64,000 bases of DNA from Patescibacteria group bacterium (lineage in GTDB: Bacteria; Patescibacteriota; Minisyncoccia; Portnoybacterales; UBA2143), in NCBI GenBank assembly GCA_018830295.1, contig JAHJSM010000003.1, positions 2,512 through 66,511 of the forward strand, in the 5' to 3' direction. Both the position numbers and the translations under genes were made by a program. The notes under the pieces were generated by a model. It saw nothing but the letters and a program-made list of their open reading frames with translations. It ran no database searches and was not told the origin of the DNA. This document shows, piece by piece, positions 455 through 59,000 of the stretch (the first letter of the stretch is position 1; every line of letters begins with the position of its first letter).

Positions 455-474
455 ATTATTTGTTTGTTTATTTG

Positions 475-1464: not shown

Positions 1465-1468
1465 ATTT

Positions 1469-1675: not shown

Positions 1676-1746
1676 AGTATCTTAATACGCTATACTGGAA
1701 TACAAGAGATAATAAAACTTGTATCTAAGTAAATAATAACAAAAAT

Positions 1747-3258: not shown

Positions 3259-3341
3259 TTATTGATATGATTTTATACCAAAAAACTATAATAATCAAGG
3301 TTAGACCTTGTGCCAATAATTTTAAAAATATAACTTAAATA

Positions 3342-5014: not shown

Positions 5015-5016
5015 AT

Positions 5017-34939: not shown

Positions 34940-35362
34940 ATGATTAAAAAAGAAACGGCCATCCAGCAAATCGTCAATCACTATTTCGCAACTAAGGGCT
35001 TAAACACCGACGAGCTTAAAAAAGACGCCAAAAAAGGAAAAATTATTTATTCCAGGCATACCCGCCCCGCGAAACAACTCTTAGAACTCGCTGGTTCCGT
35101 CACAAAAGCCAAAAAAGCCATCAATAAGGTCTCAAAGTGGGCGCGCTCAAGAAACCTTGATTACGCCATTGAGACCGTTTTTAAAAAATGGCTTGAATTA
35201 GATCGCCTCAAACCAAAAGAGATCGTCAAAAAACCTTTTTTTAGAGATGAACCGATGATTTGGTCAAAGACAAAAAAGAAATGGTTTGTTATTACCAAAG
35301 ACGGCGAATGGAAAGAATTCGCCGCTAAAGAATCCGAGATTGAATGGAAATTAGAAAAATGA
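34940..35362 (+). CDS. hypothetical basic protein
   Basis: A 140-aa K-rich protein with no recognisable domain. Confidence 0.4.
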   Translation: MIKKETAIQQIVNHYFATKGLNTDELKKDAKKGKIIYSRHTRPAKQLLELAGSVTKAKKAINKVSKWARSRNLDYAIETVFKKWLELDRLKPKEIVKKPFFRDEPMIWSKTKKKWFVITKDGEWKEFAAKESEIEWKLEK

Positions 35363-36654
35363 TTCTCAACATCCAAACAGGCGCCGACAATCCCGTTTTG
35401 CGCCGAAAAGCCAAAGAAGTTAAAAAAATCAACTCTCAAATCAGAGAGCTTATTTTAAATATGAAGGAAACGCTTGAAAGCGACGGCAATTCCATCGGTT
35501 TAGCCGCTCCACAAGTGGGCAAATCACTGCGCATCATCGCAATCAGCCCCGAACTAAATGAAAAATCTATCATTTTGATCAATCCAAAAATCGTTAAAAC
35601 ATCGTTTAGAAAAATAGTTTTAGAAGAGGGCTGTTTAAGTTTACCTAATATTTCCATCCCCATTAAAAGACATTCCAAAATAACGGTCCAAGCACTCAAC
35701 GAAAAAGGCGAGCCAATCAAGATAAAAACCGAAGGCCTCGCCGCCCGAATTATCCAACACGAAATCGACCATTTAGAGGGTATTTTAATTATTGACTCCC
35801 TCTTGGGGACAGTCCCTCGCCACGAGGGACTGTCCCCGGATTATCTTAAAACAATTTTTATCGGGACTTCTGAATTTGCCGTTCCTGTTTTGGAGGCGCT
35901 TGTTCGCTGTTCATTGTTCGCCGTTCAATGCGTTATTACCGCTCCCGATAAACCCGCTCCCTCGCCGATTAAAATAGCCACTTTGCAAAACGGGTTGCCT
36001 ATCTTACAACCCGAAAAAATATCAAAAGCCGCGGTGAAAATATCCAATTTAAAGCCCGACTTAATCATCACCGCCTCTTATGGACAAATCATTCCAAAAA
36101 ATATTTTAGACATTCCAAAATACGGCTCCATTAACATCCACCCTTCGCTTTTGCCAAAATATCGCGGACCGTCCCCCATCCAAACGGCCATTTTGAACGG
36201 CGACAAAAATACTGGCATTTCCGTGATGCTTATGGACGAAAAAATGGACCACGGGCCGATTATCGCCCAAAAAAAAGTCGCTATAAAAAAGCGCGAAAAC
36301 TATCAGGACTTGGAAAAAAGATTATCTCTCCTCTCGGCAAATTTTTTGTTAAAGATTCTGCCACGATATATCCAAGGAAAAATTAATCCGAAAAAACAAA
36401 ACAATTCTAAAGCCAGTTATACTAAAATACTTTCCCGCCAAGACGGACAAATTAAACCAAAACAAACCGCCCAAGAAATTGAAAGAATGCTCTGCGCTTT
36501 TACGCCTTGGCCCGGCGTCTGGACTATTATTAAAAAACGCCGAGTAAAAATCCTCAAAGCGAAGGTCGTCCAAGGGCGACTTCTCTTAGAAATTGTCCAG
36601 CCCGAAGGCAAAAAACCAATGACCGCGGAGGAATTTTTTCGTGGATTAAGGTAA
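35344..36654 (+). CDS. def-fmt: peptide deformylase - methionyl-tRNA formyltransferase fusion
   Basis: Def motifs GLAAPQVG, EGCLSLP and HEIDHLEG are present. A hairpin-derived linker SLLGTVPRHEGLSPDYLK follows. The Fmt N-terminus IFIGTSEFAVPVLEAL lacks its own Met and continues to an Fmt C-terminal domain. Confidence 0.8.
   Translation: MEIRKMILNIQTGADNPVLRRKAKEVKKINSQIRELILNMKETLESDGNSIGLAAPQVGKSLRIIAISPELNEKSIILINPKIVKTSFRKIVLEEGCLSLPNISIPIKRHSKITVQALNEKGEPIKIKTEGLAARIIQHEIDHLEGILIIDSLLGTVPRHEGLSPDYLKTIFIGTSEFAVPVLEALVRCSLFAVQCVITAPDKPAPSPIKIATLQNGLPILQPEKISKAAVKISNLKPDLIITASYGQIIPKNILDIPKYGSINIHPSLLPKYRGPSPIQTAILNGDKNTGISVMLMDEKMDHGPIIAQKKVAIKKRENYQDLEKRLSLLSANFLLKILPRYIQGKINPKKQNNSKASYTKILSRQDGQIKPKQTAQEIERMLCAFTPWPGVWTIIKKRRVKILKAKVVQGRLLLEIVQPEGKKPMTAEEFFRGLR
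35805..35837. repeat. GC hairpin element exactly at def/fmt junction (in frame)
   Basis: ggggacagtccctcgccacgagggactgtcccc. Confidence 0.85.
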
Positions 36655-39155: not shown

Positions 39156-39259
39156 AAAAATTTTTAATTTCCAATTTTTAAAACTCTCAAATTTTTCTTA
39201 ATCTTGTTCTTGTTTTTCTTATTTTTCTTATTTGGAAATTGATAATTGAGAATTGAAAA

Positions 39260-41401
39260 TTATATCTCTTCTTCTCCCTTATCCTCAAAAACATCTCTCG
39301 CCTTCGCTCCATCGGATGGGCCGACTACGCCTCTATCTTCTAAAATATCAATCAGACGAGCGGCGCGGGCGTATCCAACCCTTAAACGCCTTTGGAGTAA
39401 GGACGCAGACGCTTTTCCGGCGCGGATAACTTCCGCTTTCGCTTCTTCGTAAAGCTCGTCGTCCGCTTCCGAACCGTCGGCGCTAAACGAAGTTCTTCTT
39501 GACTCTGTTCCGGAAGAATCCAACTCATCCTTATACTCCGGCTCGCAACCCTTTCTTAAATAATCCGTCACTTTTTTAATCTCTTTTTCTGAAACATATC
39601 CGCCCTGAACCCGAATCGGCTTAGCAGAATTTCCTGCCAAGAAAAGCATATCGCCGTTGCCTAATAATTTTTCTGCCCCGCCCATATCCAAAATCGTCCG
39701 CGAATCAATCTGTGAAGCAACTTGAAAAGCCATTCTTGAAGTAATATTCGCTTTAATTAAACCCGTAATTACTTCAACCGAAGGCCTTTGGGTCGCGACA
39801 ATCAGGTGAATCCCGACCGCGCGCGCCATTTGAGCGATTCTCACAATCGCTCCTTCTGCCTCGCGTCCATAAGACGACATTAGGTCCGCCAACTCGTCAA
39901 TCACAATCACGATATATGGTAACCGCTCTCCGTCTATATCCTTATTATAACTTCCAATATCCCGTTTCCCTGCCCCTTGAAGAACGCCAAACCGTCTTTC
40001 CATTTCCCCAACCGCCCACCGTAAAGCGCCGACTGCCTTGTCTGGCTTAACAATTACCGGCGTTAATAAATGAGGAATGTTGCTATACGCCGTTAACTCA
40101 ACCCTTTTCGGGTCAATTAAAATAAGTTTCAAATTTTCAGGCAAAGCGCGATAAAGTAAACTCAAAATAACATTATTCAAAGCAATCGTTTTGCCCGTTC
40201 CTGTCGCGCCGGAAACCAAGAGATGAGGCATTTGCGACAAATCAGCAAAGACCGGCTTGCCCGCCACATCGCGTCCTAAAGCGAGAACCAATCCCGCAGT
40301 GGATTCTTGAAAAGCGGGCCTCTCCAAAAGCGTTCTTAATCGCACCAAAACCATTGATTTATTGGGAATTTCTATCCCAACCAAAGACCTTTTGGGAATG
40401 GGCGCCTCTATTCTTAAGGGATGCGCCGCCAAAGCCAAAGCCAAATCATTTTGCAAAGAAGTAATTTTAGCAAGTTTAACTCCTTGGGCTGGCCTCAAAG
40501 TATATTGTGTCACCGTCGGTCCAACATTTACTTCCGCCATTTCCACTTCAATCCCAAAATTCTCCAGCGTTCTTTTTATAATATTAATATTCGCTTTAAT
40601 ATCGCCGCTCGTCGGCTGGCCGACATCTTTTTCCAAAAACTCAAGAGGAGGCAATTGAAAACCGCTAAATTGCTTGTTCAAACCGTCCGAAATTGAAACC
40701 ATAGGAATAACAGTCGCTTTTGCTTTCGCCTTTACATCGGGAGCCGCCTCTTTTCCTACAATATGGTCACCTCCAATTTCTGGCTTATTGTCTGGCAAAT
40801 CAGATTTTCTTTTAAGCCGTTGCCAAACGCTGTTTTTTACCTCAACAGCTAAAGATTCCTCTTTCTCGTCCTCCGAAGATTTGGCGGAGGAGGATTTAAC
40901 CGCCCGCGCCGGTATTAGAGAAATATTAAAAGTAATTAAAATAGAAATCGCCAAAACAGCGAACAGGACAACCAGTCCCGCCCAAAATCCCAGAAATTTA
41001 GAAGAGGGATAACCCAAAACCAATCCCAAATATCCGCCTTCAGCGGTCAAAATATGAAAAAGACCTAAAACACTGAAAATAAAAAGGGCCATTCCCGATA
41101 GAATCGTCCGATAAACAGGGTTGCTTCGCCCGCCAAAACCAAAACCAGGAAGCAAAACCGCCAGCCCAGCGAGAACAAAACTAATAGAAACCAAGAAAAA
41201 TCCCTTGCCAAAAAGCATTACGCTCAATTTGAAAAAATATTCGCCAAATGTCCCGGCCACGCCCAAAAAACTTAACAAACTAACAGCGGCAAAAGTGAAA
41301 AAAATAATCACCAAAACCCCCTTCTTGGTTTCAGGGTGGAGGAAAGAAATCTTCTTTTTAACGCCACCCTTTTTAAGTTTTTTTTTGGTCTTTTTGGGCA
41401 T
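39260..41401 (-). CDS. ftsK: DNA translocase FtsK
   Basis: N-terminal TMs are followed by the FtsK/SpoIIIE motor (VSGATGTGKT) and a C-terminal gamma domain (LLQRRLRVGYARAARLID). Confidence 0.9.
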   Translation of the reverse strand: MPKKTKKKLKKGGVKKKISFLHPETKKGVLVIIFFTFAAVSLLSFLGVAGTFGEYFFKLSVMLFGKGFFLVSISFVLAGLAVLLPGFGFGGRSNPVYRTILSGMALFIFSVLGLFHILTAEGGYLGLVLGYPSSKFLGFWAGLVVLFAVLAISILITFNISLIPARAVKSSSAKSSEDEKEESLAVEVKNSVWQRLKRKSDLPDNKPEIGGDHIVGKEAAPDVKAKAKATVIPMVSISDGLNKQFSGFQLPPLEFLEKDVGQPTSGDIKANINIIKRTLENFGIEVEMAEVNVGPTVTQYTLRPAQGVKLAKITSLQNDLALALAAHPLRIEAPIPKRSLVGIEIPNKSMVLVRLRTLLERPAFQESTAGLVLALGRDVAGKPVFADLSQMPHLLVSGATGTGKTIALNNVILSLLYRALPENLKLILIDPKRVELTAYSNIPHLLTPVIVKPDKAVGALRWAVGEMERRFGVLQGAGKRDIGSYNKDIDGERLPYIVIVIDELADLMSSYGREAEGAIVRIAQMARAVGIHLIVATQRPSVEVITGLIKANITSRMAFQVASQIDSRTILDMGGAEKLLGNGDMLFLAGNSAKPIRVQGGYVSEKEIKKVTDYLRKGCEPEYKDELDSSGTESRRTSFSADGSEADDELYEEAKAEVIRAGKASASLLQRRLRVGYARAARLIDILEDRGVVGPSDGAKARDVFEDKGEEEI

Positions 41402-41459: not shown

Positions 41460-44400
41460 CTATTTCCCGTATCCTGTTCCTGCTGGTATTAGTTTACCAA
41501 TAATTACATTTTCCTTCAACCCCTTTAATTTATCCTCTTTTCCTTGGATGCTGGCGTTAATCAAAACCTGCGTCGTTTGAATAAACGAAGCTGCCGAAAG
41601 AAAACTTTCCGTCGTCAAAGAAACCTTGGTAATACCAAGCAAAATCTGCTCGCCAGACGCAAGTTCTCCGCCTTTTGCCGCGGCCTCATTATTCTCCGCC
41701 GTAAAACGACTTTGTTCAACAATCTCATCCCCTAAAAGAGTCGTTGAGCCGGGGTTTTTGACTTTGACGCGAGAAAACATCTGGCGAATAATCATCTCTA
41801 TGTGCTTATCGTTGATATTTGCTCCGACAAACGCGTAAATTTGTTGAACCTCTTTCAGAATATATCTCTGAACCGCTTCCCTTCCCGCCACTTTATACAA
41901 ATCAGCCAAGTCAACATGCCCCTCTCCTAATTGCTGTCCTTTTCCAACCAAGTCGCCTTTTTCAATTTGCATCGCGATATGCGACGGAAGAGTATATTCC
42001 AAAACCGCTTTTTTATTCTTGTCTTTCTTTTGTTTCCCGTCATCCAAAACCTCTATCTGAACAATTCTCTGTGTTCCATTTTCAATAATATTTTTCACCT
42101 TGCCGTCCACTTCTGAAATGACGGTCTTGCCTTTGGGAACGCGCGCTTCAAAAATTTCCTCAATCCGAGGAAGACCCTGCGTAATATCCTGCCCGCCCGC
42201 GACACCGCCCGTGTGGAAGGTCCGCAAAGTCAACTGGGTCGCCGGCTCGCCAATCGCCTGCGCCGTCACAATTCCAACCGCCTCGCCTAATTCAATTAAC
42301 GCGTTTCTACCCAAATCATATCCATAACAACTTTGACAAACTCCATCCAACGACTTGCAAGCGATGACAGACCTAACTCTGACGCTTTTAACGCCCGCTT
42401 CATCTATAATCTGAGCGGCTTTTTGACTAATGATCTCGCCTGCTTTCGCCAACAATTTTTTCTTGCCGCCTTTGCCCGCCTCCGCGTAAATATTATCTAA
42501 CGCGATTCTCCCGACAATCCGATAAGCGAACGAAACTCCCAAATCTTCTTCGTCCTCGCGATAAATTTTAATCCCGGTCGTATCTCCGCAATCCTTTTCG
42601 CGAATGACCACATCCTGACAGACATCAACCAAGCGACGCGTCAAATACCCTGCTTGCGCCGTGTTCAGAGCCGTGTCAGCCAATCCCTTTCTGCCTCCAT
42701 GAGTGGAAATGAAATATTCCAAAACGCTCAAGCCCTCTTTATACGAATTTTTAATCGGCAGTTCAATAATTTCATTAGACGGGTTGACAACCAACCCTTT
42801 CATTCCCATCATTTGAGATAACTGTTTTAAAGACCCGCGCGCGCCCGAATCAAAAATACTGAAAACTGGGCCGTTTGGGTCAAGGACCTCCATTGTTTTT
42901 TTGGATATTTTATCGCTCACGCCCAGCCAAATCTCAATTACGCGCGCTCTTCTTTCGTCATCCGTCAACAACCCGTCGTCATATTGCCCCTGAACTTTAA
43001 CCGACTCGCGCGAGGCCTTTTCTAATTCTTCTTTTTTCTCTTTAGGAACTTGTAAATCATCCATGCCCCAACTAATGCCAGAAACCGAAGCGTATTTAAA
43101 GCCCATTCTCTTAAGTTTGTCTAAGATAACCGCTGTTTTTTTAATACCAAATTTATCAACTATTTCCGAGACCAATTTGCGGATTTCTTTTTTATTCATC
43201 GTCTTGTTGACAAACTCCATTCCTTCTGGCAAGGGCTCGTTAAAAATTACTCGCCCAATAGATGTTTCCACTAATTCTCCGTTCTCTAAGCGAACTTTGA
43301 CCCTCGCTTTCAAATGGACATCGCCAAAATGCTTCGCTAAAAGCGCCTCCGAAATGCCCGAAAAAATCTTCCCTTCGCCAACTAGCCCCTCCTCAATTTT
43401 TGTCATCCAGTAGCAACCCAAAACCATATCCAAAGAAGGCACCGCGACCGGTTCGCCCGTAGATGGCTTTAAAATATTGACCGAAGAAAGCATAATCTCC
43501 TTCGCCTCTTTTTGCGCCGCCTTGCCTAAAGGTAAATGAACTGCCATTTGGTCGCCGTCAAAGTCGGCGTTAAAAGCGCTACAAACAAGAGGATGAACCT
43601 GAATTGCTTTTCCTTCAATTAAAATCGGCTGGAAGGCCTGTATTCCCAAACGATGCAAAGTCGGCGCTCTGTTCAAAAGCACATATCTATTCTTGGTCAC
43701 TTCTTCTAAAATATCCCAAACCTCGTCAATTTCTTCCTCAATCAGCCGTCCTGCGCCTCTCACATTATGCGCCAACTCTCTCTCAACTAATTTGTTAATT
43801 ACAAACGGCTTGAAAAGTTCCAAGGCCATATATTTAGGCAATCCGCACTGGTTCAATTTTAAATCAGGACCAACAACAATAACTGAACGGCCTGAATAGT
43901 CAACTCTTTTTCCTAAAAGGTTTTGTCTAAATCTGCCCTGTTTGCCTTTAAGCATATCCGCCAACGATTTCAAAACGCGTTTTTGCCCGGTAGACGCGGC
44001 AACCGTCACTTGTCCGCGACGGCTCGTGTTGTCAATCAAAGCGTCAACCGCTTCCTGCAACATTCTTTTCTCGTTGCGGCAAATAACCTCCGGCGCTTTC
44101 AACTCCAAAAGCCGCTTTAAGCGGTTATTTCTATTAATCACTCGGCGATACAAATCATTGACATCAGAAGTCGCGTAACGGCTTCCATCCAATTGAACCA
44201 TCGGACGCAAATCAGGCGGCAAGACCGGCAAGACCGTCCAGAACATCCATTCCGGGCGAATTTTAGCGCGAATCATTCCCTCAATCAGTCGCAACCGCTT
44301 GAGCATTTTTGCCTTAATCGCCACGCTCGCCGTTTTCGCCTGGTCATCCAGTTTTTTAGCAAGCGCTTCTAAATTAATTCCCTCAAAAATTGTCCTTAAT

Positions 44401-45050
44401 GTTTCCGAACCCGTCCCCGCTTCAAAAACCTGCCCATATTTCATACTCAAAGCGCGATAATCAATTTCCGAAAGAATTTGATGTTTATATAGCCCCCTCA
44501 CTTCCCGAATCGCTGCGTCCTGCTGCTCTTTAAGGTTTTGTTTCTCACCCGCTTTAGGACCAATCTCTTTTAACTTCGTCTTATACTCCTTTTTAATTTC
44601 GCTCATCACCTCTCCTCTTTCTTCTTCGTTGATTTTAGTAATAATATACCCGGCGAAATAAATCACTTTTTCCAATTCCTGCGCCGAACGATCCAAAACC
44701 AAGCCCATTTTAGAAGGCAGACCCTTCAAAAACCAGATATGCGAAACAGGCACCGCTAAATTAATATGCCCCATTCTTTCGCGGCGAACATTTGAGCGCG
44801 TCACTTCAACTCCACATTTATCGCAAACAATTCCTTTGTAGCGAACGCGGCGATATTTGCCGCAATAACACTCCCAGTCCTTTTCTGGTCCAAAAATTTT
44901 CTCGCAAAACAAACCGTCTTTTTCGGCTCTCTGCGTCCTGTAATTAATCGTCTCCGGCTTAGTCACTTCCCCCCGCGACCACCCCAAAATTTCCTCTGGG
45001 GAGGCCAACTTCAACCGAATAGATTTGAAATCGCTAACTAATGTGCTCAT
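41460..45050 (-). CDS. rpoC: DNA-directed RNA polymerase subunit beta'
   Basis: LASPEEILGWS, a zinc finger CxxC...CxxC, NADFDGDQM and the trigger loop. The start is taken at MSTLVSDF. Confidence 0.95.
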   Translation of the reverse strand: MSTLVSDFKSIRLKLASPEEILGWSRGEVTKPETINYRTQRAEKDGLFCEKIFGPEKDWECYCGKYRRVRYKGIVCDKCGVEVTRSNVRRERMGHINLAVPVSHIWFLKGLPSKMGLVLDRSAQELEKVIYFAGYIITKINEEERGEVMSEIKKEYKTKLKEIGPKAGEKQNLKEQQDAAIREVRGLYKHQILSEIDYRALSMKYGQVFEAGTGSETLRTIFEGINLEALAKKLDDQAKTASVAIKAKMLKRLRLIEGMIRAKIRPEWMFWTVLPVLPPDLRPMVQLDGSRYATSDVNDLYRRVINRNNRLKRLLELKAPEVICRNEKRMLQEAVDALIDNTSRRGQVTVAASTGQKRVLKSLADMLKGKQGRFRQNLLGKRVDYSGRSVIVVGPDLKLNQCGLPKYMALELFKPFVINKLVERELAHNVRGAGRLIEEEIDEVWDILEEVTKNRYVLLNRAPTLHRLGIQAFQPILIEGKAIQVHPLVCSAFNADFDGDQMAVHLPLGKAAQKEAKEIMLSSVNILKPSTGEPVAVPSLDMVLGCYWMTKIEEGLVGEGKIFSGISEALLAKHFGDVHLKARVKVRLENGELVETSIGRVIFNEPLPEGMEFVNKTMNKKEIRKLVSEIVDKFGIKKTAVILDKLKRMGFKYASVSGISWGMDDLQVPKEKKEELEKASRESVKVQGQYDDGLLTDDERRARVIEIWLGVSDKISKKTMEVLDPNGPVFSIFDSGARGSLKQLSQMMGMKGLVVNPSNEIIELPIKNSYKEGLSVLEYFISTHGGRKGLADTALNTAQAGYLTRRLVDVCQDVVIREKDCGDTTGIKIYREDEEDLGVSFAYRIVGRIALDNIYAEAGKGGKKKLLAKAGEIISQKAAQIIDEAGVKSVRVRSVIACKSLDGVCQSCYGYDLGRNALIELGEAVGIVTAQAIGEPATQLTLRTFHTGGVAGGQDITQGLPRIEEIFEARVPKGKTVISEVDGKVKNIIENGTQRIVQIEVLDDGKQKKDKNKKAVLEYTLPSHIAMQIEKGDLVGKGQQLGEGHVDLADLYKVAGREAVQRYILKEVQQIYAFVGANINDKHIEMIIRQMFSRVKVKNPGSTTLLGDEIVEQSRFTAENNEAAAKGGELASGEQILLGITKVSLTTESFLSAASFIQTTQVLINASIQGKEDKLKGLKENVIIGKLIPAGTGYGK

Positions 45051-45060
45051 AAGATTTATA

Positions 45061-45089
45061 ATTATCAATTTTCAATTATCAATTTTCAA
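45061..45089 (-). promoter_or_regulatory. candidate sigma70-like promoter for rpoC (TTGAAA-N17-GATAAT) within TTGAAAATTG repeat block
   Basis: The minus strand reads TTGAAAATTGATAATTGAAAATTGATAAT ending 10 nt before the rpoC ATG. Similar blocks lie upstream of recA (about 39225-39255) and of the gene at 45112-45474 (about 45490-45535). Confidence 0.3.
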
Positions 45090-45111
45090 AAAATTTCCAA
45101 TGCTTTAATTT

Positions 45112-45474
45112 TCAATTATCGGCTTTTTGGTTTTGTTTCATTGTTGAAGATATTTTATTAAATATCAAAGCAAATTCGTGAGCTTCCAACCATAATTTTC
45201 TAAGTTTATCTTTTTCTTCTGGATTTGATTGCGCCATTATTTCTATCCAATATTTGGTTTCTTGAATTTCTTTTCTGCAAATAAATATTTTGTTCTTAAA
45301 ATCTTTATTAGAACTGGCATTATTTGCTTCGCAATAATTAGCCCCAATACTTGTCGCTGATCTAATAAGTTGCGATATTAAATTTCTGTTTATTTCATCT
45401 TTTCTTATTTCTCTTAGCAGTATTATAATATTCTTGCTAAAATTCTTTGTTCTGTCTTCTAAATCATACTTCAT
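45112..45474 (-). CDS. four-helix-bundle protein (23S rRNA intervening-sequence protein family)
   Basis: SQLIRSATSIGANYCEA...KDFKNKIFICRKEIQETKYWIEI matches the family consensus (SQLrRAavSIpsNIAEG...ELETQL). Its position between rpoB and rpoC is unusual. Confidence 0.75.
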   Translation of the reverse strand: MKYDLEDRTKNFSKNIIILLREIRKDEINRNLISQLIRSATSIGANYCEANNASSNKDFKNKIFICRKEIQETKYWIEIMAQSNPEEKDKLRKLWLEAHEFALIFNKISSTMKQNQKADN

Positions 45475-45537
45475 GTTTTGAAAATTCAGTCATTGAAAAT
45501 TGTTTGAAAATTGAGAATTGAAAATTGAAAATTTTGA

Positions 45538-48500
45538 CTACTTCCCTGTCAGTTCCATCCCCAGTCCCAGCGCCTTTAACTCGCTTAACAAAACATTAAA
45601 GGAAGCCGGAATGTTCGGCGCTTGGATTTCTCTTCCGCGAATAATCGCGTCGTAAACATTCGTCCGCCCGCTCACATCGTCCGATTTAATCGTTAAAATT
45701 TCCTGCAAAGTGTGCGCCGCGCCGTATCCTTCCAACGCCCAAACCTCCATTTCCCCAAATCTCTGCCCGCCAAATTGCGCTTTTCCGCCCAAGGGCTGTT
45801 GAGTAATCAAGGAATAAGGCCCAACTGAACGCATGTGCATCTTGTCTTCAACCAAATGCAATAATTTCAAAATATATGTATATCCGACCGTAATCGGCTG
45901 TTCAAACGGCTCGCCATTTCGCCCATCGTATAAAATAACTTTTCCGCTTTCGGGCAAGCCAGCTTTCTTTAATTCGCTTTTAATTTCGCTTTCCTTAAAT
46001 CCAGCCAAAGCCGGAGTAATCGCTTGATACCCCAATTCCTTCGCCGCCCAACCAAGATGTGTTTCCAAAATTTGACCGATGTTCATCCGCGAAGCAACGC
46101 CCAAAGGATTAAGAATAATTTCCACCGGCGTTCCGTCCGCCAAATGAGGCATATCTTCTTCTGGAAGAATTTTAGAAATGACGCCCTTGTTTCCGTGCCG
46201 GCCAGCAAGTTTGTCGCCCACCGAAATTTTGCGCAATTGCGCCACTTCCACTTGGATGCTCCGAATTACTCCGCTCTGCAATTTGTCGCCATTATCGCGC
46301 GAGAAAATTTTAATTCCGACGACCCGGCCTCTTTTTCCATGCGGCATTCGCAAAGAAGTGTCTTTAACATCGCGCGCTTTCTCTCCAAAAATCGCCTGCA
46401 ATAATCTTTCTTCCGCCGTCAAATCGGTTTCTCCTTTGGGAGAAATTTTGCCAACTAAAATATCATTAGGTCCGACTTCCGCTCCAACGCGGACAATCCC
46501 CTCTTCGTCTAAATCCTTGAGTCGGTCTTCGCCCACATTAGGAATATCAGGCGTGGTCGTTTCTGGCCCTAATTTTGTTTCCCGGACGAAGCAGGTAAAA
46601 CTTTCAATATGAATTGAGGTAAATCGGTCGTCTTTGACTAATTTCTCAGAAAGAATAATCGCGTCTTCAAAATTGTACCCTCGCCATGACATAAAAGCGA
46701 CCAAAAGATTTTGCCCCAGAGCCAGCCGTCCCTGGTCGGTGGAGGCGCCATCCGCTAAAATATCATCTTTCTTAACCCTCTGTCCTTTTTGAACAAGTGG
46801 ATGCTGACAAACGCAAGTATATTGGTTTGTTCGCGTAAAAGAACGCAAATAATATGTTTTTAATTTTCCTTTTTTGGGTCTAACCGCGATATGCTCCGCG
46901 TCAACCTCTTCAATCGTTCCGTCCTCCTCGGCAATAATCAAACTACCCGAATCCCTCGCCGCTCGGTCTTCCATGCCCGTCCCAACCAAAGGCGCCTGCG
47001 GTTTAACGCAAGAAACCGCCTGTCTCTGCATATTTGAGCCCATCAAAGCGCGGTTGCTATCGTCGTGTTCCAAAAACGGAATCAAAGAAGTAGCAACACT
47101 AATTGGCTGCTGCCGCGAAACATCAATAAAATCAACCTTGGAGCGGTCAATGACGCTCGGCTGTCCCTTAACCCGCGCTTCCACGATTTTGTCAGCCAGC
47201 CGCCCGTCCGCCCCAATAGCAACCCCCTTATGCGCGATATTGTATTTCTCCTCTTCGGCGGCATTAAGACAAACAACCTCTTTTGTCGGTTTCCCTTTAA
47301 CTACTCTGCGATAAGGCGTTTCAAGAAAACCATATTCATTCAAACGCGCTGTCACAGTTAAATGCCCAATCAAACCAATGTTCGGACCTTCCGAAGTATG
47401 AATTGGACAAATTCTTCCGTAGTGACTTGAGTGCACATCTCTCACTTCAAACCCCGCTCTTTCCCTCGTCAAACCACCCGGACCCATCGCCGATAACCGT
47501 CGTTTATGCTCCAGTTCTGCCAAAGGATTGTGCTGGTCCATAAATTGCGACAATTGCGAAGAGGAAAAAAATTCTTTCACTGAAGCAATAAAAGGCCGAA
47601 CATTAATCAACTGCCCCGGCATCATTTCATAAGGGTCAAGCGTGGACATTCGGTCGCGGATAATTCTTTCTGTCCGCGCCATTCCGACTCGCAATTTATT
47701 CTGCAATAATTCCCCCATGGACTTGACGCGGCGATTGCCCAAATGGTCAATATCGTCCGGCGTCGCGCCTGGCGTATTATTTAAAACAATAATTTCCCGA
47801 ATAATATTCTTAATATCCTCCAAACAAAGCACCCTCTTTTTTTGGGGACAGTCCCCCGTCTTCGGGGGCTGCCCCCAATTCCCCACCCTCTGCCCTAACT
47901 TCCATCTTCCCACTTCTCCCAAATCGTATCTTTCAAAAGAAAGCATCGCTTCAATAAATCCACGCGCGTTATCTTCCGTTGCTAAATCGCCCGGACGAAT
48001 TCTTTTGTAAACCGAAACAAACGACTCGCCCGCCGTTTTAGCTGAGTCCTTTTCAATTGTCGCTTCAATGTAATCCGTTTCGCCATTGTTAATATCGGAG
48101 AAAAATCCCTTGATCTCATCGTTAGATAAATTGTCATTTCCTTCAAGCGCGGCAAAAACCCGCATTAAAGCGGTCACTGAAACTTTTCTCTTTCTATCAA
48201 TTTTTACGGCAATCGCGCCGTCCGAATCCGTTTCAAATTCCAACCAAGCGCCGCGGCTTGGAATAACTTTTGCTCCAAATCTTTGCTGGCCTCTTAAAAA
48301 TTGAGAAACAAAAAACGCCCCAGAAGATCTAATTAGTTGCGAAATCACGACCCTCTCCACGGCGTTCACGATAAATGTCCCGCGGTCAGTCATCACGGGA
48401 AAATCGCCAAAGAAAATTTCTTGCTCTTTGACTTCTTTTGTTTTTCTGTTAATCAACTTGACTCGACAATACAAAGACGCCTCGTAAGAAACATTGCGAG

Positions 48501-48798
48501 TTCTGGCTTCTCTTTCGTCATATTTCGGCTCATCCAGACGATAGTCGCCAAAAGAAAGTTCAAGTTCTTTGCCTCCCCAATCCTTAATCGGGGAAAACTC
48601 ATCTAAAAGTTCGCGCAGGCCTTTTTCCCAAAACCACCGATACGAATTTTTTTGTATCTCTACGAGGTTGGGCAATTCATACTCATTCCGCTGGGAAGCG
48701 GAAGCCGCGCTAAATCGCTTAGGGAGACAGCCAACACTTTGACCGTCCCAACATTGAGAATGGACTTTTTTAGACATAAAATAAAAAATCTTACGCAA
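45538..48798 (-). CDS. rpoB: DNA-directed RNA polymerase subunit beta, with in-frame hairpin-element insertion
   Basis: Conserved blocks include [19 protein letters not shown] and the rifampicin region [14 protein letters not shown] 33-nt hairpin element at about 47844-47876 is translated as [11 protein letters not shown]. Confidence 0.95.
47844..47876. repeat. GC hairpin element inside rpoB (in frame)
   Basis: ggggacagtcccccgtcttcgggggctgccccc is a chimeric unit with one arm of each type. Confidence 0.85.
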
Positions 48799-48973: not shown

Positions 48974-49049
48974 GGGAGCAGCCCCCGCAACGAGGGCTGC
49001 CCCCTTTCCCTCTCTCGGGGACAGTCCCCCGTCTTCGGGGGCTGCCCCC
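48974..49049. repeat. cluster of ~3 GC hairpin units upstream of rpoB
   Basis: gggagcagcccccgcaacgagggctgccccc ... ggggacagtcccccgtcttcgggggctgccccc. Confidence 0.8.
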
Positions 49050-49057
49050 ATCTTAGT

Positions 49058-51511
49058 TTATTCGACTACCGGCGCCTCCAATTCCTGTATTATCTTCATA
49101 ATATTCTCATTCCCCGGGACCAACTGGTCTACGATCTTAAATTGAATCAACGCGTCCGCGTTTCGTCCCGCAACTTGATAGGACAACGCTAAAGCGTATC
49201 GCCCATTAGCGTATTGCGGCGTAATAATCACCGCCTGCTCAAACATAGGAATGGCCTCGCTCACTCTGTTGAGGTTGAAATAGAGACGGCCCATCTGGAA
49301 ATAAATTTCAGTCGCCGCGCCCGCCAATTCCGAACCCCTCTGGAAACTCACCCCTTTTAATTTCGTTAAAACCGATTGCGTCTGCTCAAGCGCTCTTTCA
49401 AGCTCGCCCTTCTGCTCATAAGCCAACGCCAATTGAATATGCGCGTCTAAATAATTAGCTTTCAAATCAACCGCCTTTTGACAATAAGCGACTGTTTCGT
49501 CCCAATTCTCTTTTTCAACCGTCTCGTCTTCCGTAATTAAATTCAACCGACAAAGTTCCCGATAAAAAACAGGATTGCTCGGCTCTAACTCCAACGCTTT
49601 CGCGAACGCCTCCATAGCGAAAGGCAAAGTTCCGCCAACCAAGCCACGCGCGTCCCGATAAACCGCTCCCAAATTTTCCCAAGCGCTCACGGAATTGGGA
49701 CTCAAATCGGTCGCCACTCTCGCTTGCTGAATAGAACCGGCGGCAAGTGTTTGTAACAATTCAATATTTCTCTCCGCCTCCGCCTTTCGCGCCTCTTCCC
49801 AAGCGGAAACCAAATAAATCTGCGACAAATTCTGCCGATAACTCGCCCTGTATCTGTTCAAATTAACTATTTCTTCGGCGCGGCGAATTAAATCTTGCCT
49901 GTCAGTCGCCGTCTGAATTAATTTTGCTTCCGCTAAATAAAATCTGCCCCCTAAATAAAAGAGGCCCGCCATCACAAAGATCAAAATCAACAAAACAACA
50001 TTAATGACCAATCCCACTTCTGGCAGTTTTTTGAAAGAAAAAGATATTTTCTTGCAAGGTTTCTCTTGAAGACCTTGCCAACTGACGATACCTAATGCCG
50101 TAAAGAGCCAGAAATAGAAAAGCAAAACCGTATTTTGCGAATAGACAAATTGAGAAATAAATAAAATTAACCAGAAAAGAAGAAAAGGCAGAATAATCAG
50201 TTCGGCGGCGGCGACATCCTTACTTTTCTTAAGCCGCCACAAAGACAAAACCATAATCAGCAAGAACATAAAGACAACCGTTAAATAACTTAAAATTCCC
50301 AAAATGCCAAGCGCCCCCGTCGTTTCCATAAAATAATTTGACGCCCTGTCAAACCTAATGTTCCAAAACTGACTGTTGTTAAATTCAGCCGGCTTAAACT
50401 TGGCGAAATTAGCTAAAAAAGTTCCTTCTCCCGAACCCAGAATTGGGTATTCTTTGAGCGTCTGCCATGTAATCGTATTTGTCATTGCCCCGTCCAAAAT
50501 CAGTTCCTTGGGTATATCCTGGTTAATATTGTTAAAATCGCTCAATAACTCCACCCGGCCCGGCAAATTAACAATAAAAATTCCGGCGATAATTAGCAAA
50601 GCGATCGGCAACATCAACGCGTTGACTCTCTTGCGAAAAATTCGCGTCCAAAAAGCGATAATTAACAAAAGAGCCATCGCCGCCGCTAAAGAAACCCAAG
50701 CCGCCCAAAAGTTAATGACAACCAAAAGAATAACCGACGCCGCCAATAATCCGTAACTTAAGACCTTTGCTAAAACGCCTCTTTTTTTGCCCTGTAAAAA
50801 GACGCCTGTGATCAGTCCGACAATCGCCGCCAAAAATATGCTTAACCCCTCAAACGAGCCGCTCACTGGGTTAAAAGAACGCAAATTCATAATCTCAGGC
50901 AGACCCGGAATTTTGCTCCAAAGATTAAAAACAGAAAGATAAGCCGCCAAAACAGCCACCCAGCCCGAGACCAAAACTAAATTAATTACCGTCCTCAAAC
51001 AAACCCCAGGCGAACAAATCAACATTCTTTTCTTTGTTGTCGCGACTGCGTTTATATCAGGGGGCAGTCCCCCGTCTTCGGGGGCTGCCCCCGTCTTAGA
51101 AACCATCACATTATTCACCACGACAAAATAAAGCAAACACATCGCCAATAAACCAATCGCCGAATCCGAAAACTTCCCATACCCGCCCAGCCACGAAGAA
51201 ACACTATTAATTGAAAAAACAGCGCTCAAAATAACCATGAGCATAAAAACCAAAACCCAAATATCTAAAGGCGTCCGACGAAAGACAACTTTCTTTCGAA
51301 CAATAATTGTTTTCGCGAGCCAAGCGAACAAGGCCAAAGAGGCCAAAACAAAAAGCAAATATTGCTTATTAAACTCAAACACTTCCGCTGTCCAAGGCAG
51401 CCAAAATAAAGGCAGCAAAAGAACCAGCGCGTAAACCGAATACTTAATCGCGAAGTTGTATATCTTCCTCATCTTTTTTTTTGCCTCTCGAATTGCCGCT
51501 GGCTTTTTCAA
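49058..51511 (-). CDS. O-antigen ligase/polymerase-like polytopic membrane protein with C-terminal TPR repeats
   Basis: More than 10 TM segments with a Wzy_C-like central part, followed by C-terminal TPR-like repeats (AHIQLALAYEQKGELERALEQ). An in-frame hairpin sits at about 51060-51092. Confidence 0.65.
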   Translation of the reverse strand: MKKPAAIREAKKKMRKIYNFAIKYSVYALVLLLPLFWLPWTAEVFEFNKQYLLFVLASLALFAWLAKTIIVRKKVVFRRTPLDIWVLVFMLMVILSAVFSINSVSSWLGGYGKFSDSAIGLLAMCLLYFVVVNNVMVSKTGAAPEDGGLPPDINAVATTKKRMLICSPGVCLRTVINLVLVSGWVAVLAAYLSVFNLWSKIPGLPEIMNLRSFNPVSGSFEGLSIFLAAIVGLITGVFLQGKKRGVLAKVLSYGLLAASVILLVVINFWAAWVSLAAAMALLLIIAFWTRIFRKRVNALMLPIALLIIAGIFIVNLPGRVELLSDFNNINQDIPKELILDGAMTNTITWQTLKEYPILGSGEGTFLANFAKFKPAEFNNSQFWNIRFDRASNYFMETTGALGILGILSYLTVVFMFLLIMVLSLWRLKKSKDVAAAELIILPFLLFWLILFISQFVYSQNTVLLFYFWLFTALGIVSWQGLQEKPCKKISFSFKKLPEVGLVINVVLLILIFVMAGLFYLGGRFYLAEAKLIQTATDRQDLIRRAEEIVNLNRYRASYRQNLSQIYLVSAWEEARKAEAERNIELLQTLAAGSIQQARVATDLSPNSVSAWENLGAVYRDARGLVGGTLPFAMEAFAKALELEPSNPVFYRELCRLNLITEDETVEKENWDETVAYCQKAVDLKANYLDAHIQLALAYEQKGELERALEQTQSVLTKLKGVSFQRGSELAGAATEIYFQMGRLYFNLNRVSEAIPMFEQAVIITPQYANGRYALALSYQVAGRNADALIQFKIVDQLVPGNENIMKIIQELEAPVVE
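51060..51092. repeat. GC hairpin element inside O-antigen-ligase-like CDS
   Basis: gggggcagtcccccgtcttcgggggctgccccc. Confidence 0.85.
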
Positions 51512-52144: not shown

Positions 52145-52232
52145 GGGGGCAGCCCCCGCAACGAGGGCTGCCCCCTTTCTCCCATCCCCGGGGACAGTCC
52201 CCCGTCTTCGGGGGCTGCCCCCATCTTAGTTA
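52145..52232. repeat. three GC hairpin units between comM stop and yraN start
   Basis: gggggcagcccccgcaacgagggctgccccc ... ggggacagtcccccgtcttcgggggctgccccc. Confidence 0.85.
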
Positions 52233-53765: not shown

Positions 53766-53821
53766 CCCGCAACGGGGGCAGCCCCCATCCCCTCTCTTGG
53801 GGACTGTCCCCGTCTTAGCTA
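53766..53821. repeat. two GC hairpin units between dprA stop and comM start
   Basis: gggggctgcccccgcaacgggggcagccccc ... ggggactgtcccc. Confidence 0.85.
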
Positions 53822-54689
53822 TTTAGTATTATACTTCCCTCCTCTTAATTTAATTAGCCCCCTAATTTCCATCAACGATAACTTAACACTTAATTCCGAA
53901 ACCGACATTTCCAAACCGCGCGATAATTCATCTATCCCCATCGGCTCCTGCTCTAATTTTCTTAAAATCCTGGCTTCGGGGGCTGCCCCCGCAACGGGGG
54001 CAGCCCCCATCCCCTCTCTTGGGGACAGTCCCTCGTCTTCGGGGGCTGCCCCCATCCCCCTTAAAACATCCTCCGCGCTCAAAACCATTTCCGCCCCATT
54101 CTTAATTAATAAATTAGTCCCCTTTGACAACGAACCCGTTATCGGCCCTGGCGTGGCAAAAACCTTTCGGCCAAACTTCTTCGCGCAATTAGCAGTAATC
54201 AAACAACCGCTCTTTTCTCCCGCCTCAATCACCAAAAGCGCCTTTGATAAACCAGCCACAATTCTGTTTCTTTGAGGATAAGTCCAAAGCGCCGGCTTCA
54301 TCTCCCCTTCATATTCAGAAATTATTAGCCCCCCGCTCTCCAAAATACTCTTATAAAGTTTTTTTTTGATGAGCCGGATGAATTAAATCAATCCCGCATG
54401 GCATCACCGCAATCGTTCGCCCGCCCGCTTTAATCGCCGCTTCATGAGCCGCCGCATCGCCTCCATACATAAATCCAGAAACAATCGTAATTCCAGCCAT
54501 CGCGATTTCGCCAACTATCTGCTCCATTATCCGCTCGCCATAAGAAGTCAATCTCCTGCTCCCAATAACCGCCAAACAATTTTCAAAAATACTCAAGTCA
54601 AAATCGCCTTTATAATACAATTGCTTAGGCGCGCCCTTAGTTTGTTTTAAAAGTTCAGGATACTCTTCATCTTCCTTGTAAATTATCAT
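53819..54689 (-). pseudogene. dprA: DNA processing protein DprA interrupted by frameshift at A9/T9 homopolymer (or sequencing error/transcriptional slippage site)
   Basis: Two adjacent ORFs, 54351-54689 and 53819-54343, together cover DprA: the Rossmann part, then GGLIISEYEGE...RNRIVAGLS, then a winged helix. Removing one A/T from the run at about 54352-54362 joins them as ...HQKK-LYKSILESGG.... The downstream part also carries an in-frame hairpin cluster. Confidence 0.7.
53976..54055. repeat. three GC hairpin units inside dprA C-terminal region (in frame)
   Basis: gggggctgcccccgcaacgggggcagccccc ... ggggacagtccctcgtcttcgggggctgccccc, translated as MGAAPEDEGLSPREGMGAAPVAGAAPE. Confidence 0.85.
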
Positions 54690-56015: not shown

Positions 56016-59000
56016 TTAGTATCCCACCGCATCCGCAGAAGGCGTTTCTAGCTCTTCAACCACCGGTTCCTCGGCAACAGGTTCCTCAGTCACCGGCTCA
56101 GGAGAGGACACCTCCACCACCGGCTCCGGCTCGTCCGCTTCAGGGACTTCTTCGGGGGCTGCCCCCGCAACGGGGGCAGCCCCCTCTTCATCAACCACCG
56201 GGGGCAGTCCCTCGTCCGCGGGGGCTGCTCCCTCTTCATCAACCACAGGTTCCTCAACCACCGGTTCAACCACCGGGGGCAGTCCCTCGTCCGCGGGGGC
56301 TGCTCCCTCTTCATCAACCACCGGCTCCTCCGCAACCGCCCCGCATTCCCCGGCGACTGTTTGCGCCGCCCCACTCGCAACAAAGAAACAATACGGTAGT
56401 CCCGTCACTCTATCATACAATGTAATCCCTGCCTGCTCTTCAACTCCTCCTCCAACCTTCAATTGCTCTGTTTCAATATTTTTCGCCTTAATTTTATCAA
56501 CAACTAAAACTCCTTCCTCGTCCAAAACCAATCCCAATTCCGCCAAATCCATCCTTAATTCCTCCAGCGAATCCACTTCAACCAAATCCCCATTTTCATC
56601 CCGCTCCACTGTCAACAACGCCTCCAATTCCTCTAATCTATTATTCAACGCTTTAACCCCCGCTAAAGCAAACGAAGTATAATCATACAAACTAACCGAC
56701 TCCCCATCAGAAATCATCCCAATAGGGGGCAGTCCCCCGTCGCGGGGGCTGCTCCCGTCCGCAACTTCCCCTCCCCCATACCTCCCCATTTCCATCCCCG
56801 CAATCAGCCCTAAAATCTCAGCGTAATCCGCCTCCTCTAAATATGTAACTTCCATTTCATCCGCGCGCGGCAAATAGACATCCCATCCGTCAGCAATCGC
56901 GCTCCCCGCGCCCCGCCCAATCGTCAAGATATTCGTCGGCGACGAAGTAGCAATCCCAAACCGCCCCATCGTATCCAAAACCAACCCCACAGGGGGCAGA
57001 GGGGGCAGTCCCCCGTCGCGGGGGCTGCTCCCGTCCCATGCCTCCACCAACCTAATCAACCCCGCCTCCTCCAACTTCAGTGTTAATCCGTCCGTCAACT
57101 GCTCCATTCCCTCCATCCGCGCGTCAATCTCCTCAAACTGCTCTGGAATAACATCTCTAATATCCAACGCCAAATCGGAAATTTCATCCATCGCGAGCGT
57201 TAATTTAGCGTCAATCAAAAGCAACTGCGGAGAAACAATTTCGTTAATATCATCCTCTAAGTTCAAATTATCAATCGCTCCAGCAATCAAGATATTAACT
57301 TCATCTTCAATCTCCATCGCCGCGACCCGCTCCGTCACTTTATCTTCCACCTCTTCCACTGTGAGCGACTTATTCCGCCGCGAAATCAAAACATTAATCA
57401 CCCCTTCGCCTTCTTTAAGTCCCTCAAGCGCTACCCCAACCGTCGGGTCCCCCGCCCCTGCCCGCATAATATACCCTGGAACCGAAGCCGAAGTAAGCGA
57501 ATCCCCCGGGCGAATAGGTCCGCCTTCCGCAGAGACCTTCGCTGGCACCTGCCCAAGCATTCCAATAATAGCGTAATGCGGATTGTCTTCCCGCCTTTCA
57601 TCAGAAGGAGCGTTCCCCAAAAATGCCGGATTAGTTGAAACAATACCCATGATATTTCCATCAGCCGCCCGTTCGCACCGCTTGACCGCGTTTTCCCGTT
57701 CAATATCAACGCAAACCGCCTCGCCTGATTTCAAATCGGTATCAATGGAATAATAGTATTCAGCGTAGTCAGCCGAACCGGAAGTCCAAGCGTTGGTCGC
57801 GTTGACATAAGCCACATTAACGCCGTCGCTATTATGGTCAACTGTCAGCCGATAATCTGGCGTCGTGTCCCCGATGCCGACGTTGCCGCTATTTCTTTTG
57901 ACTGCAATTCCAAGAATTTCCGACCCAGCATCATAACCGACGATTTTAAGCACATAATTTGCTTCATCAAAAAGTATTTTAGCACCGTATGTGGAAAGGC
58001 CACGTTCCATAAAAGAGATTCCTTTATTGGTTCCCTCGGGGATATTCAAAGATAACAATTCATTTGGACTCGTCGTCCCGATGCCGACGTTGCCCGAGGC
58101 GTTTATACGCATTCGTTCCTTAATACTGGAACTATCATTTGTGTGGAAAGATAAATAACCAGTAGCAGAACCGTCAGTCGCAGATTCTTTTCTGCCCGCA
58201 ATTGCTCCAAAAATCTGTTTGCTCCCCGCACTGTTGTAAAAACCTCCCATACCGATTGCACCGCCTTTGTCTATGGCAAAAGAATCGCTGGTCATTGCCG
58301 CAATGTGAACCTGTGCATCTCCATTAAGTCCATCCGCCAAATTCTGATTGGCTTTGACAACATCTAAGGTTGTCCCCGGACTCACTGTCCCGATGCCGAT
58401 ATTACCCGCCGAAGTGACAACGAAGGAGGGCGTTGCTCCAACTGTGAAATCCCCACCAATATACATAGCTCCAGTAGTAGTTGCATTGCCATCAACCGTT
58501 AAATTACTTCCAAAGTGACCTGCTCCTTGAGTAAATAGACCCGTAGTAGAAGAAGCATATCCTGTTGTAACTAAATTCCCCCCTGAAGTAACCGTCAATA
58601 GATTTGCGCCGGTGGATGAGGCAATAGTAAATATATCTGAACTACCAGCTGTGCCTTGAATAGATAGTTTAGATAGTGGCGTTGTTGTTCCTATGCCGAC
58701 GTTGCCGCCGACAACTGATAACGTCTCAGTAAATGCACCACTATTTCCATAGCCAATTCCTACTCTACTCGCACTGTTTACGGAAAAAATTTGCAACAGA
58801 TTATTTTGAATACCAAACCCGTAACCAGTTCCCGCGGCATTGTCATATAATGCAATCTTATTTCCCACTGCTGTACCTAATGACAATGGAAAACTCGGCC
58901 CCGTCGTCCCGATGCCGACGTTGCCGCTAAATACTGCCTTACCTCCTATACTTAAAGTATCAGTGGTAGTTGCCGAACCCATTGTCAATCCAAAGGCGGT

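Follow-up and report, generated by a model that had tools for sequence, protein, structure and literature searches.

A REP-like hairpin repeat lies in frame in a variable loop of the RNA polymerase beta subunit gene of a Portnoybacteria-like bacterium

The gene for the RNA polymerase beta subunit, rpoB, lies with rpoC in a 64,000-nucleotide (nt) stretch of Patescibacteria DNA (the whole stretch is referred to here as the window) and contains a 33-nt hairpin sequence that is translated as part of the protein. The source of the DNA is a Candidatus Portnoybacteria-like member of the Patescibacteria, judging from the names of the RpoB homologues, and the window matched a 744,622-bp contig (ENA ERZ27247117, k141_539904) with 100% identity. 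The main features of the locus are as follows.

41460-45068: rpoC, downstream of rpoB
45538-48798, minus strand: rpoB, RNA polymerase beta subunit, an open reading frame (ORF) of 1086 codons with a full-length translation
47833-47877, minus strand: segment that differs from the empty allele, with 45 nt TGGGGGCAGCCCCCGAAGACGGGGGACTGTCCCCAAAAAAAGAGG (15 residues) in the window versus 15 nt CAATCTAAGGGGCGA (QSKGR) in sister strains
47844-47876, minus strand: 33-nt hairpin core in rpoB, defined by its exact sequence, translation, RNA fold, and family matches

The rpoB ORF begins with TTG at 48798, and the corresponding NCBI protein, MBU1289718.1 (1079 amino acids), begins with ATG at 48777. All six RNA_pol_Rpb2 Pfam domains (1, 2, 3, 45, 6, and 7) were present in near-identical homologues of the window RpoB. 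The plus strand at 47844-47876 reads GGGGACAGTCCCCCGTCTTCGGGGGCTGCCCCC, a letter-exact match to the 33-mer that an initial annotation of this DNA had described as a hairpin element in frame within rpoB, and its translation was as given there. On the gene strand the unit is GGGGGCAGCCCCC-GAAGACG-GGGGACTGTCCCC; its two arms differ in type, one being GGGGACAGTCCCC-like and the other GGGGGCTGCCCCC-like. Together with the preceding T, the unit encodes W301 to P311, 11 residues of the 1079-residue RpoB, and there were no stop codons in any of its six frames.

The unit is predicted to fold as RNA with an energy of -32.1 kcal/mol (z = -5.6 against shuffled sequences). A hairpin that has no T-run 3' of the stem should not work as an intrinsic terminator. 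The hairpin in rpoB has no T-run on either strand (the next bases are AAAAAAAGAGG on the gene strand and AATTCC on the plus strand), and a terminator scan of both strands did not flag it. A role as an intrinsic (Rho-independent) terminator in rpoB was therefore not supported. None of the repeat units in the window matched Rfam 15 at the gathering score, and the whole window gave two tRNAs only. A phage origin of the unit was also considered and was dropped, because there was no exact match to it in viral contigs and no blastn match in phage records. A metagenome search for the exact unit returned two contigs only, both from the same species as the window.

The unit in rpoB is one of many copies of a REP-like (repetitive extragenic palindromic) repeat that is specific to its species. 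The family as a whole and the closest relatives of the rpoB copy are located as follows.

18497-63951, no single strand: whole repeat family, 38 paired units (curated) of 30 to 33 nt within ∼45 kb
49017-49049, minus strand: identical 33-nt copy, intergenic, upstream of rpoB, in a two-hairpin cluster (48974-49049), with the tag CTAAGAT 5' on the gene strand
51060-51092, minus strand: one-mismatch copy, translated in frame at residue 140 of an 817-residue TPR/Wzy_C protein
52190-52222, minus strand: identical 33-nt copy in a two-hairpin cluster between comM (ChlI-like) and yraN (UPF0102)

When up to three mismatches were allowed, the 33-mer had seven matches in the window, all on the plus strand, compared to 0.00 expected from shuffled sequences, and the rpoB unit was identical in 33 of 33 positions to the copies at 49017 and 52190. 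Thus, the insert is a dispersed hairpin element, as originally proposed. The two 13-nt arms, searched with up to two mismatches, had 94 and 110 matches (0.38 and 0.78 expected). The unit had also been called chimeric; it does combine two arm types, but the mixed-arm form is not a one-off event, because it recurs as a standing subfamily of seven copies, three of which are identical.

Each arm, GGGGRC-W-GYCCCC, is palindromic by itself, so that the hairpin of a unit consists of two nested palindromes. The GC content of the 38 units was 81%, compared to 43% for the genome and the window. There were 70 arms in the 64 kb, or ∼1.1 per kb, and no units in the first 16 kb. Many units sit within ∼10 nt past stop codons, where arms frequently pair as hairpins. 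A tail, RTCTYW, follows the stem on the plus strand in 16 of the 38 units, which on the gene strand amounts to CTAAGAY located 5' of the hairpin; there were no tagged units in the opposite orientation. The copy in rpoB does not have the CTAAGAY tag, which contains TAA.

Alleles of rpoB with and without the unit (referred to as filled and empty) were found in related contigs (designated by L numbers) and proteins (P numbers). The initial annotation had suggested a comparison of sister strains. At the DNA level, L006 and L007 (100% identity) and L004 (with single-nucleotide polymorphisms [SNPs] of its own) carried the filled allele, and L001, L005, and L093 carried the empty allele. L001 is the closest sister contig and is 96 to 99% identical over rpoB-rpoC-ftsK-recA. 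Overall, the empty allele was found in at least five sequences, and the conspecific contigs with the 15-nt form were 96 to 98% identical to the window. Proteins from filled alleles were P0121 (MBU1289718.1 and MBU2580078.1) and P0123 (MBU4031112.1, from a third NCBI metagenome-assembled genome [MAG]), and those from empty alleles were P0001, P0122, P0126, and P0129. Both types occur within one protein cluster of 90% identity, in line with the earlier suggestion that the unit could serve as a strain marker; the 30-nt length polymorphism would be a simple one. The copy is fixed in one lineage of a Portnoybacteria-like population.

Base-by-base comparison with L001 and L004 to L007 showed that the filled allele is a net 30 nt longer, that the reading frame is kept, and that there is no target-site duplication. 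The element is present in one allele and absent from the other, but relative to the present-day empty alleles 45 nt stand in place of 15 nt, and a clean insertion of 33 nt, like one with a target-site duplication, was rejected. The most economical parse of the alignment would place 33 nt between AAT (N) and CAA (Q), with QSKGR changed to QKKR. Insertion 3' of a CTAAG target was considered, since TCTAAGGGGCG in the empty allele resembles the tag plus an arm, and was rejected because the junction does not fit. An origin as a miniature inverted-repeat transposable element was ruled out by the lack of a duplicated target in filled/empty comparisons at rpoB, rpoC-ftsK, and comM-yraN, in which a few bases were replaced.

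Repeats can cause misassembly, and contigs of this species often end at repeats; L001, for example, ends at 35848, by the unit at 35805-35837. However, it is hardly credible that a repeat-induced mis-join placed the unit in rpoB. Both flanks are collinear rpoB and the frame is intact. An artefact is unlikely because the same junctions were present in three assemblies (L006, L007, and L004), one of which, L004, has two SNPs of its own close to the insert, at distances of 7 and 10 nt on its upstream side. The third NCBI MAG, represented by P0123, has the insert too.

The sequence around the insert suggests exchange between strains. The window and L004 have in common a block at 47884-48196 that differs from the empty alleles by ∼8% and stops exactly where the insert lies, whereas directly downstream of the insert (47832-47534) the window is the same as L001. 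The genes neighbouring rpoB in L004 resemble those of L005 and not those of the window. Therefore, rpoB in this population is a mosaic produced by recombination, in which the filled allele has passed from one background to another. Other units also differ between strains. L001 lacks the hairpin between rpoC and ftsK as well, and at least four further clusters within 5 kb were found only in the window lineage and were missing from L004 and L005. The copy at 49017-49049 was present in L001 and L093 and absent in L004 and L005, in which the two-hairpin cluster between comM and yraN was also absent. The TPR/Wzy_C segment around the unit at 51060 measured 129 nt in the window versus 24 nt in L004 and L005. 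Turnover of the units from strain to strain is fast.

The insert lies between the helix with the motif RYDLxxVGRxK and the following conserved block of the beta2 lobe. An alignment of orthologues, proposed earlier as a check, placed it in a dispensable variable linker and not in a conserved catalytic block, and the prediction that the position is variable between lineages was borne out. There were no invariant columns from K293 to D321 in an alignment of 72 RpoB sequences, and the insert falls in the second of only three internal regions of variable length in these sequences (residues ∼213, 302 to 304, and 637). Among 60 relatives, the linker from the conserved upstream block to the motif RVLxFxDL ranged from 4 to ∼60 residues.

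An AlphaFold2 model built from the 72-sequence alignment predicted helices at 287-298 and 319-334 and a coil at 299-311, with a predicted local distance difference test (pLDDT) score below 50 at residues 301 to 307, within the insert, and scores of 73 to 92 in the surrounding lobe blocks. The insert adds a predicted 11-residue coil rich in Gly and Pro between two RpoB helices. In alignments to PDB structures, the site was opposite the loop GLHVGEPITSSTLTEED of chain 6edt_C, which we take to be Mycobacterium tuberculosis RNA polymerase (RNAP), and the alignment to a Firmicute chain (8i23_C) split exactly at the site, leaving ∼118 residues (278 to 397) unaligned. The predicted coil of low pLDDT between confident helices and the long extra segment in 8i23_C agree with the original supposition that this is a surface region. 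The beta2 lobe, in which the betaIn5 insertion of Bacillus subtilis lies, is known as a hot spot for lineage-specific insertions (PMC7749167).

The loop is permissive and dispensable, having no conserved residues and a length that already varies among relatives. The insert is tolerated because it lies in such a site, because the net addition of 30 nt keeps the frame and introduces no stop codon in any of the six frames, and because this copy has neither the TAA-containing tag nor a T-run 3' of the stem.

In the window genome rpoB is no special case. About 17 of the 38 units are inside real ORFs, where they are read in frame, and all three gene-strand frames are used (yielding GAAP, GQPP, and GSSP). 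Besides rpoB and the TPR/Wzy_C protein gene, the genes with units include the following.

35805-35837, within an ORF at 35344-36654, plus strand: one unit in the linker (GTVPRHEGLSP) between def and fmt
692-residue ORF: two units
FtsQ-like POTRA protein: two units, C-terminal of the domain
DprA: two units, in the linker that connects the Rossmann domain to the winged-helix domain
giant Hint-domain protein: seven units

The ORF at 35344-36654 encodes 436 residues, with peptide deformylase at residues 14 to 153 and methionyl-tRNA formyltransferase at residues 171 to 410, and the repeat unit seems to span the junction of a fusion between def and fmt, or to lie within that fusion. The dprA gene (53819-54689, minus strand) is divided into two ORFs of 112 and 174 amino acids by a frameshift in a run of nine A's near 54345. 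Its counterpart on the sister contig L092 is uninterrupted (289 amino acids, 4784-5653), and the split in the window could stem from a sequencing error in the homopolymer, reflect phase variation, or mark a pseudogene. The gene for the giant protein (56016-63986, minus strand) runs past the end of the window (4450 amino acids in L006) and has Pfam hits to Hint and intein-splicing domains. It contains near-identical repeats, DEEGAAPADEGLPPVV at 56200 and 56275 and VNSGAAPVARAxPKY at 62292 and 63921.

Five other Portnoybacteria-like species have unrelated long hairpins at the same RpoB site, with stems of up to 27 bp:

L088: stem of 26 to 27 bp, core GTTAGACCCCCGAGGTCTAAC
L089: stem of 27 bp, core ATTTGGGCCTTAAAGGCCCAAAT
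L090: stem of 21 bp, TTTAGGAGTTGGACTCCTAAA, with arms found four more times in 14 kb
L091: compound hairpins, with arms found again elsewhere in the locus
L018: stem of 19 to 20 bp, TTGGGAGTGCAACTCCCAA

The hairpins in the five species start within a few codons of one another and each arm is self-palindromic, and the peptides that they encode have nothing in common between species. The idea that every long insert at this site derives from a hairpin was refuted by L002, L094, and L095, which have long fillers with stems of no more than 4 bp. Among unselected GTDB relatives with a readable linker (68 to 78% identity), 1 of 13 (L018) had a hairpin at the site. The rpoB gene of L089 has two hairpin insertions, one at the first length-variable site (1346-1392) and one at the second (1652-1710).

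It could be argued that the insert was selected in rpoB, either as a hairpin RNA (for example, one that is cut by RNase III or that makes the polymerase pause and so tunes rpoBC expression) or as an 11-residue loop that contacts a lineage-specific factor. The mRNA hairpin is very stable (-32 kcal/mol), long hairpins are present at the same site in at least five other species, and the beta2 lobe holds functional lineage-specific insertions in other phyla (PMC7749167). However, the allele is polymorphic among near-identical strains and hence dispensable, the peptides at the site are unlike one another across species, the same units are in many unrelated genes and intergenic regions, and the loop is predicted to be disordered. 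Thus, a selected function in rpoB appears very improbable.

In two of these species, L089 and L018, a gene for a Y1 protein of ∼230 amino acids is located right after rpoB, between rpoB and rpoC. The L089 protein matched PF01797 (E value, 1.6e-7; 31.9 bits, with a cutoff of 23), and its top NCBIfam match was REP-associated tyrosine transposase (RAYT) (E value, 5.9e-11), with 42 bits, which is under the RAYT equivalog cutoff of 80. An HUH-like motif (NHYHFLL) and YIHLNP are visible in the sequence. The genes and the palindromes associated with them are as follows.

L018, 7865-8551: Y1 gene, with hairpin dimers of its own family at 7793-7854 and 8564-8627
L089, 4182-4886: Y1 gene, with palindromes at 4111-4166 and from 4894 (span, 4111-4935)
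L018, 8049-8067, and L089, 4367-4388: in-frame palindrome within the Y1 gene

In L089, TTTGGGACCGWCGGTCCCAAA is found upstream of, within, and downstream of the Y1 gene, and the same palindrome is in rpoB at 1346-1392. The arrangement in L018 and L089 corresponds to the REPtron layout of REP/RAYT systems. Each of the two Y1 genes has one cognate palindrome in frame at the same position (residues ∼61 to 68), which suggests coevolution or autoregulation.

REP sequences and the hairpins built from them (REPINs) are known together with RAYT genes, including intragenic REPs and the REPtron layout (PMC3733652, PMC2817692, and PMC3116915). Intragenic REPs of the GTAG and CGTC types are read in frame, encode 10 to 30 residues, and are often in replication and repair genes (PMC3733652). 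The units in the window resemble REPs and REPINs in several ways. They are GC-rich, high-copy, species-specific palindromes of 30 to 33 nt, within the size and copy number range of REPs. Many are past stop codons between codirectional genes, and units are often paired or clustered and vary between strains; 16 of the 38 have a short conserved motif at the 5' foot of the hairpin; part of them are in frame inside ORFs; and the RAYT-like Y1 genes of related species lie among palindromes of each species' own type.

There are also differences. The tag is CTAAGAY, with no GTAG, and the opposite strand reads C and then GTCTTAG, which is loosely CGTC-like; to obtain CGTC itself at the hairpin foot, the final C of the stem has to be included. 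The stems are 13 to 16 bp, compared to 8 to 9 bp in CGTC families (PMC3733652), and the arms are self-palindromic, hence the nested palindromes. The proportion of intragenic units (∼17 of 38) is far above the usual REP share. The Y1 proteins of the relatives, at ∼230 amino acids, score below the NCBIfam RAYT cutoff (42 versus 80 bits). The host phylum, Patescibacteria, is different, and no RAYT gene was found within the 64-kb window. A literature search, which was limited in reach, found nothing pairing RAYT with Patescibacteria and nothing reporting a REP in rpoB.

Rickettsia palindromic elements (RPEs), the most familiar example of in-frame palindromic repeats, lie in many unrelated housekeeping genes of a host-dependent bacterium with a small genome, where they encode function-compatible peptides (PMC10969869 and PMC3733652). 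The units studied here are similarly in-frame palindromes in genes of a small-genome bacterium, in this instance rpoB, the def-fmt linker, and dprA. However, RPE-1 is ∼100 to 150 bp with a conserved peptide, whereas the units in the window are 30 to 33 nt, are read in three frames, and have no sequence in common with RPEs, and filled and empty alleles of the rpoB unit coexist within one species. The unit behaves like RPEs but, in size and sequence, is outside the RPE families. In-frame palindromic repeats are thus established, and the rpoB case works like RPEs and intragenic REPs. The likeness to betaIn5 of B. subtilis is in location only: betaIn5 is inserted at the same beta2-lobe position between conserved anchors, but it is ∼180 amino acids long, folded, and fixed in its phylum, and the 11-residue insert is a predicted coil, is polymorphic, and originates from mobile DNA. 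Homology is not implied.

The palindromes could alternatively be an uptake signal or protein-binding motif, with the 13-mers GGGGRCWGYCCCC serving as sites for a DNA uptake, nucleoid, or restriction-modification protein and accumulating through biased uptake and recombination. DNA uptake sequences (DUS) and uptake signal sequences (USS) occur at ∼1 per kb in Neisseria and Pasteurellaceae. The density of arms in the window (∼1.1 per kb) is near that value, and the arms often pair as hairpins past stop codons, as DUS pairs do, in inverted pairs after genes and in weakly constrained coding parts. The window has the competence genes dprA and comM, the insert borders a recombination block, and a gene for a C5 DNA methylase is located at 475-1464, with GCWGC present in the arms. 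USS and DUS originate for the most part through substitutions, and their sequence is conserved within a whole family, whereas the units in the window come as indels, differ completely between sister species, and in relatives are linked to Y1 genes. The change in rpoB is a 30-nt length difference and not a set of accumulated substitutions, relatives have wholly different palindromes at the RpoB site and by the Y1 gene, a turnover between species of the REP type, there were no units in the first 16 kb, and the metagenome contigs with the exact unit were just two, both of the same species. Thus, it seems rather improbable that the palindromes are uptake or protein-binding sites.

The explanation that we favour, and consider the probable one, is that the unit is a REP/RPE-like nonautonomous palindromic element that was mobilized by a Y1 transposase and is tolerated in a permissive RpoB loop. 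A RAYT-like tyrosine transposase of the Y1 (HUH) type, supplied in trans, would have mobilized the unit in the form of a single-stranded DNA hairpin, as has been proposed for REPs and REPINs, and the filled rpoB allele would then have spread between strains through homologous recombination. For the window genome, participation of a Y1 enzyme is presumed by analogy with the related species in which such genes are present.

Several points weigh against this explanation. No Y1 or other plausible transposase gene was found in the 64-kb window. The Pfam scan for transposases, which covered ORFs of at least ∼100 amino acids and left out the rpoB and rpoC ORFs, the giant ORF, and four ORFs of 76 to 99 amino acids, detected one recombinase, of the large serine type and unrelated. 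A tblastn search with the L089 Y1 protein matched L089 and L018 only, and none of the best 120 Y1 homologues was on the 744,622-bp source contig. Whole REP superfamilies of the CGTC type are reported to have no dedicated transposase (Di Nocera et al., PMC3733652). The junction in rpoB is unclean (45 nt for 15 nt and no target-site duplication), and this copy does not have the CTAAGAY tag. The L002 outgroup (86% identical) has a different filler at the site, 37 residues longer and with no hairpin; with the outgroups at hand, the difference at the rpoB site may reflect either gain or loss. The AlphaFold2 model was moderate overall (mean pLDDT, 61.9), and the loop is probably exposed at the surface, as deduced from pLDDT and secondary structure.

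Some of these points would fit a spread that is independent of a transposase, through host processes: repair or template switching where forks stall or cruciforms form, gene conversion from copy to copy, and transformation with homologous recombination. The rpoB copy would then have been patched in from another copy or strain. The rpoB junction is a replacement with no target-site duplication, the insert is at the edge of the divergent block common to the window and L004, no transposase gene was found in the window, CGTC-type REPs are reported to have no dedicated transposase (PMC3733652), and the window encodes recA, dprA, and comM. However, the RAYT-like genes of two relatives lie between palindromes of the respective species, the one-way orientation of tagged units (16 versus 0) and the conserved 5' tag fit a strand-specific enzyme, and the copy number and strain turnover are typical of mobile DNA. 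A transposase-independent spread is therefore unlikely, although it deserves serious consideration.

That unrelated hairpins lie in one RpoB loop and that a RAYT-like gene lies by rpoB in two species suggests a route by which lineage-specific RNAP insertions begin. A bolder and doubtful extension would be that, in Portnoybacteria-like Patescibacteria, REP-like hairpins specific to each species and moved by RAYT-like Y1 proteins encoded between rpoB and rpoC have landed again and again in the loop that follows RpoB helix 287-298, with these insertions seeding lineage-specific RNAP insertions like those of the beta2 lobe. If so, the window lineage would represent the very beginning of an RNAP insertion, at a stage when natural populations are still polymorphic for it.

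Tolerance of a selfish repeat inside an essential gene is clear in rpoB and is not unprecedented. What is added here is the natural filled and empty rpoB alleles in one species, the reuse of the same beta2-lobe loop by unrelated hairpins, and the RAYT-like gene beside rpoB in two species. A gene as highly constrained as rpoB, in a 0.75-Mb genome, can take up and retain a selfish palindromic repeat, and the alleles that coexist in nature already provide a test of how well RNA polymerase tolerates insertions. The phenomenon of in-frame palindromic REPs and RPEs extends to the Candidate Phyla Radiation. The high proportion of intragenic units, close to one-half, may be due to the scarcity of intergenic space in such tiny genomes, and the repeats explain the fragmented assemblies of these organisms.

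Other mobile DNA may be present in the window. Positions 1-3300 (GC content, 0.34) contain the gene for the C5 cytosine DNA methylase (475-1464, minus strand) and that for the large serine recombinase (1747-3258, plus strand), the end of which is overlapped by a tRNA gene (3179-3250, minus strand), and this region is likely an integrated element. Between rpoB and rpoC (45056-45538) is a gene for a 23S_rRNA_IVP protein (PF05635; 120 amino acids; 45112-45474, minus strand) that is edged by AT-rich inverted TTTTCAATT repeats; it was present in L005, L007, and L002, and L001 has 6 nt in its place. A gene-less stretch between ftsK and recA (39158-39273) has similar AT-rich ends and was missing from L001. 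These two regions look like a second, AT-rich mobile element family. Within ftsK (40828-40900, minus strand), 73 nt replace 34 nt of L001 in the N-terminal linker, a further strain-specific replacement with a net gain of 39 nt that is in frame and contains no hairpin unit.

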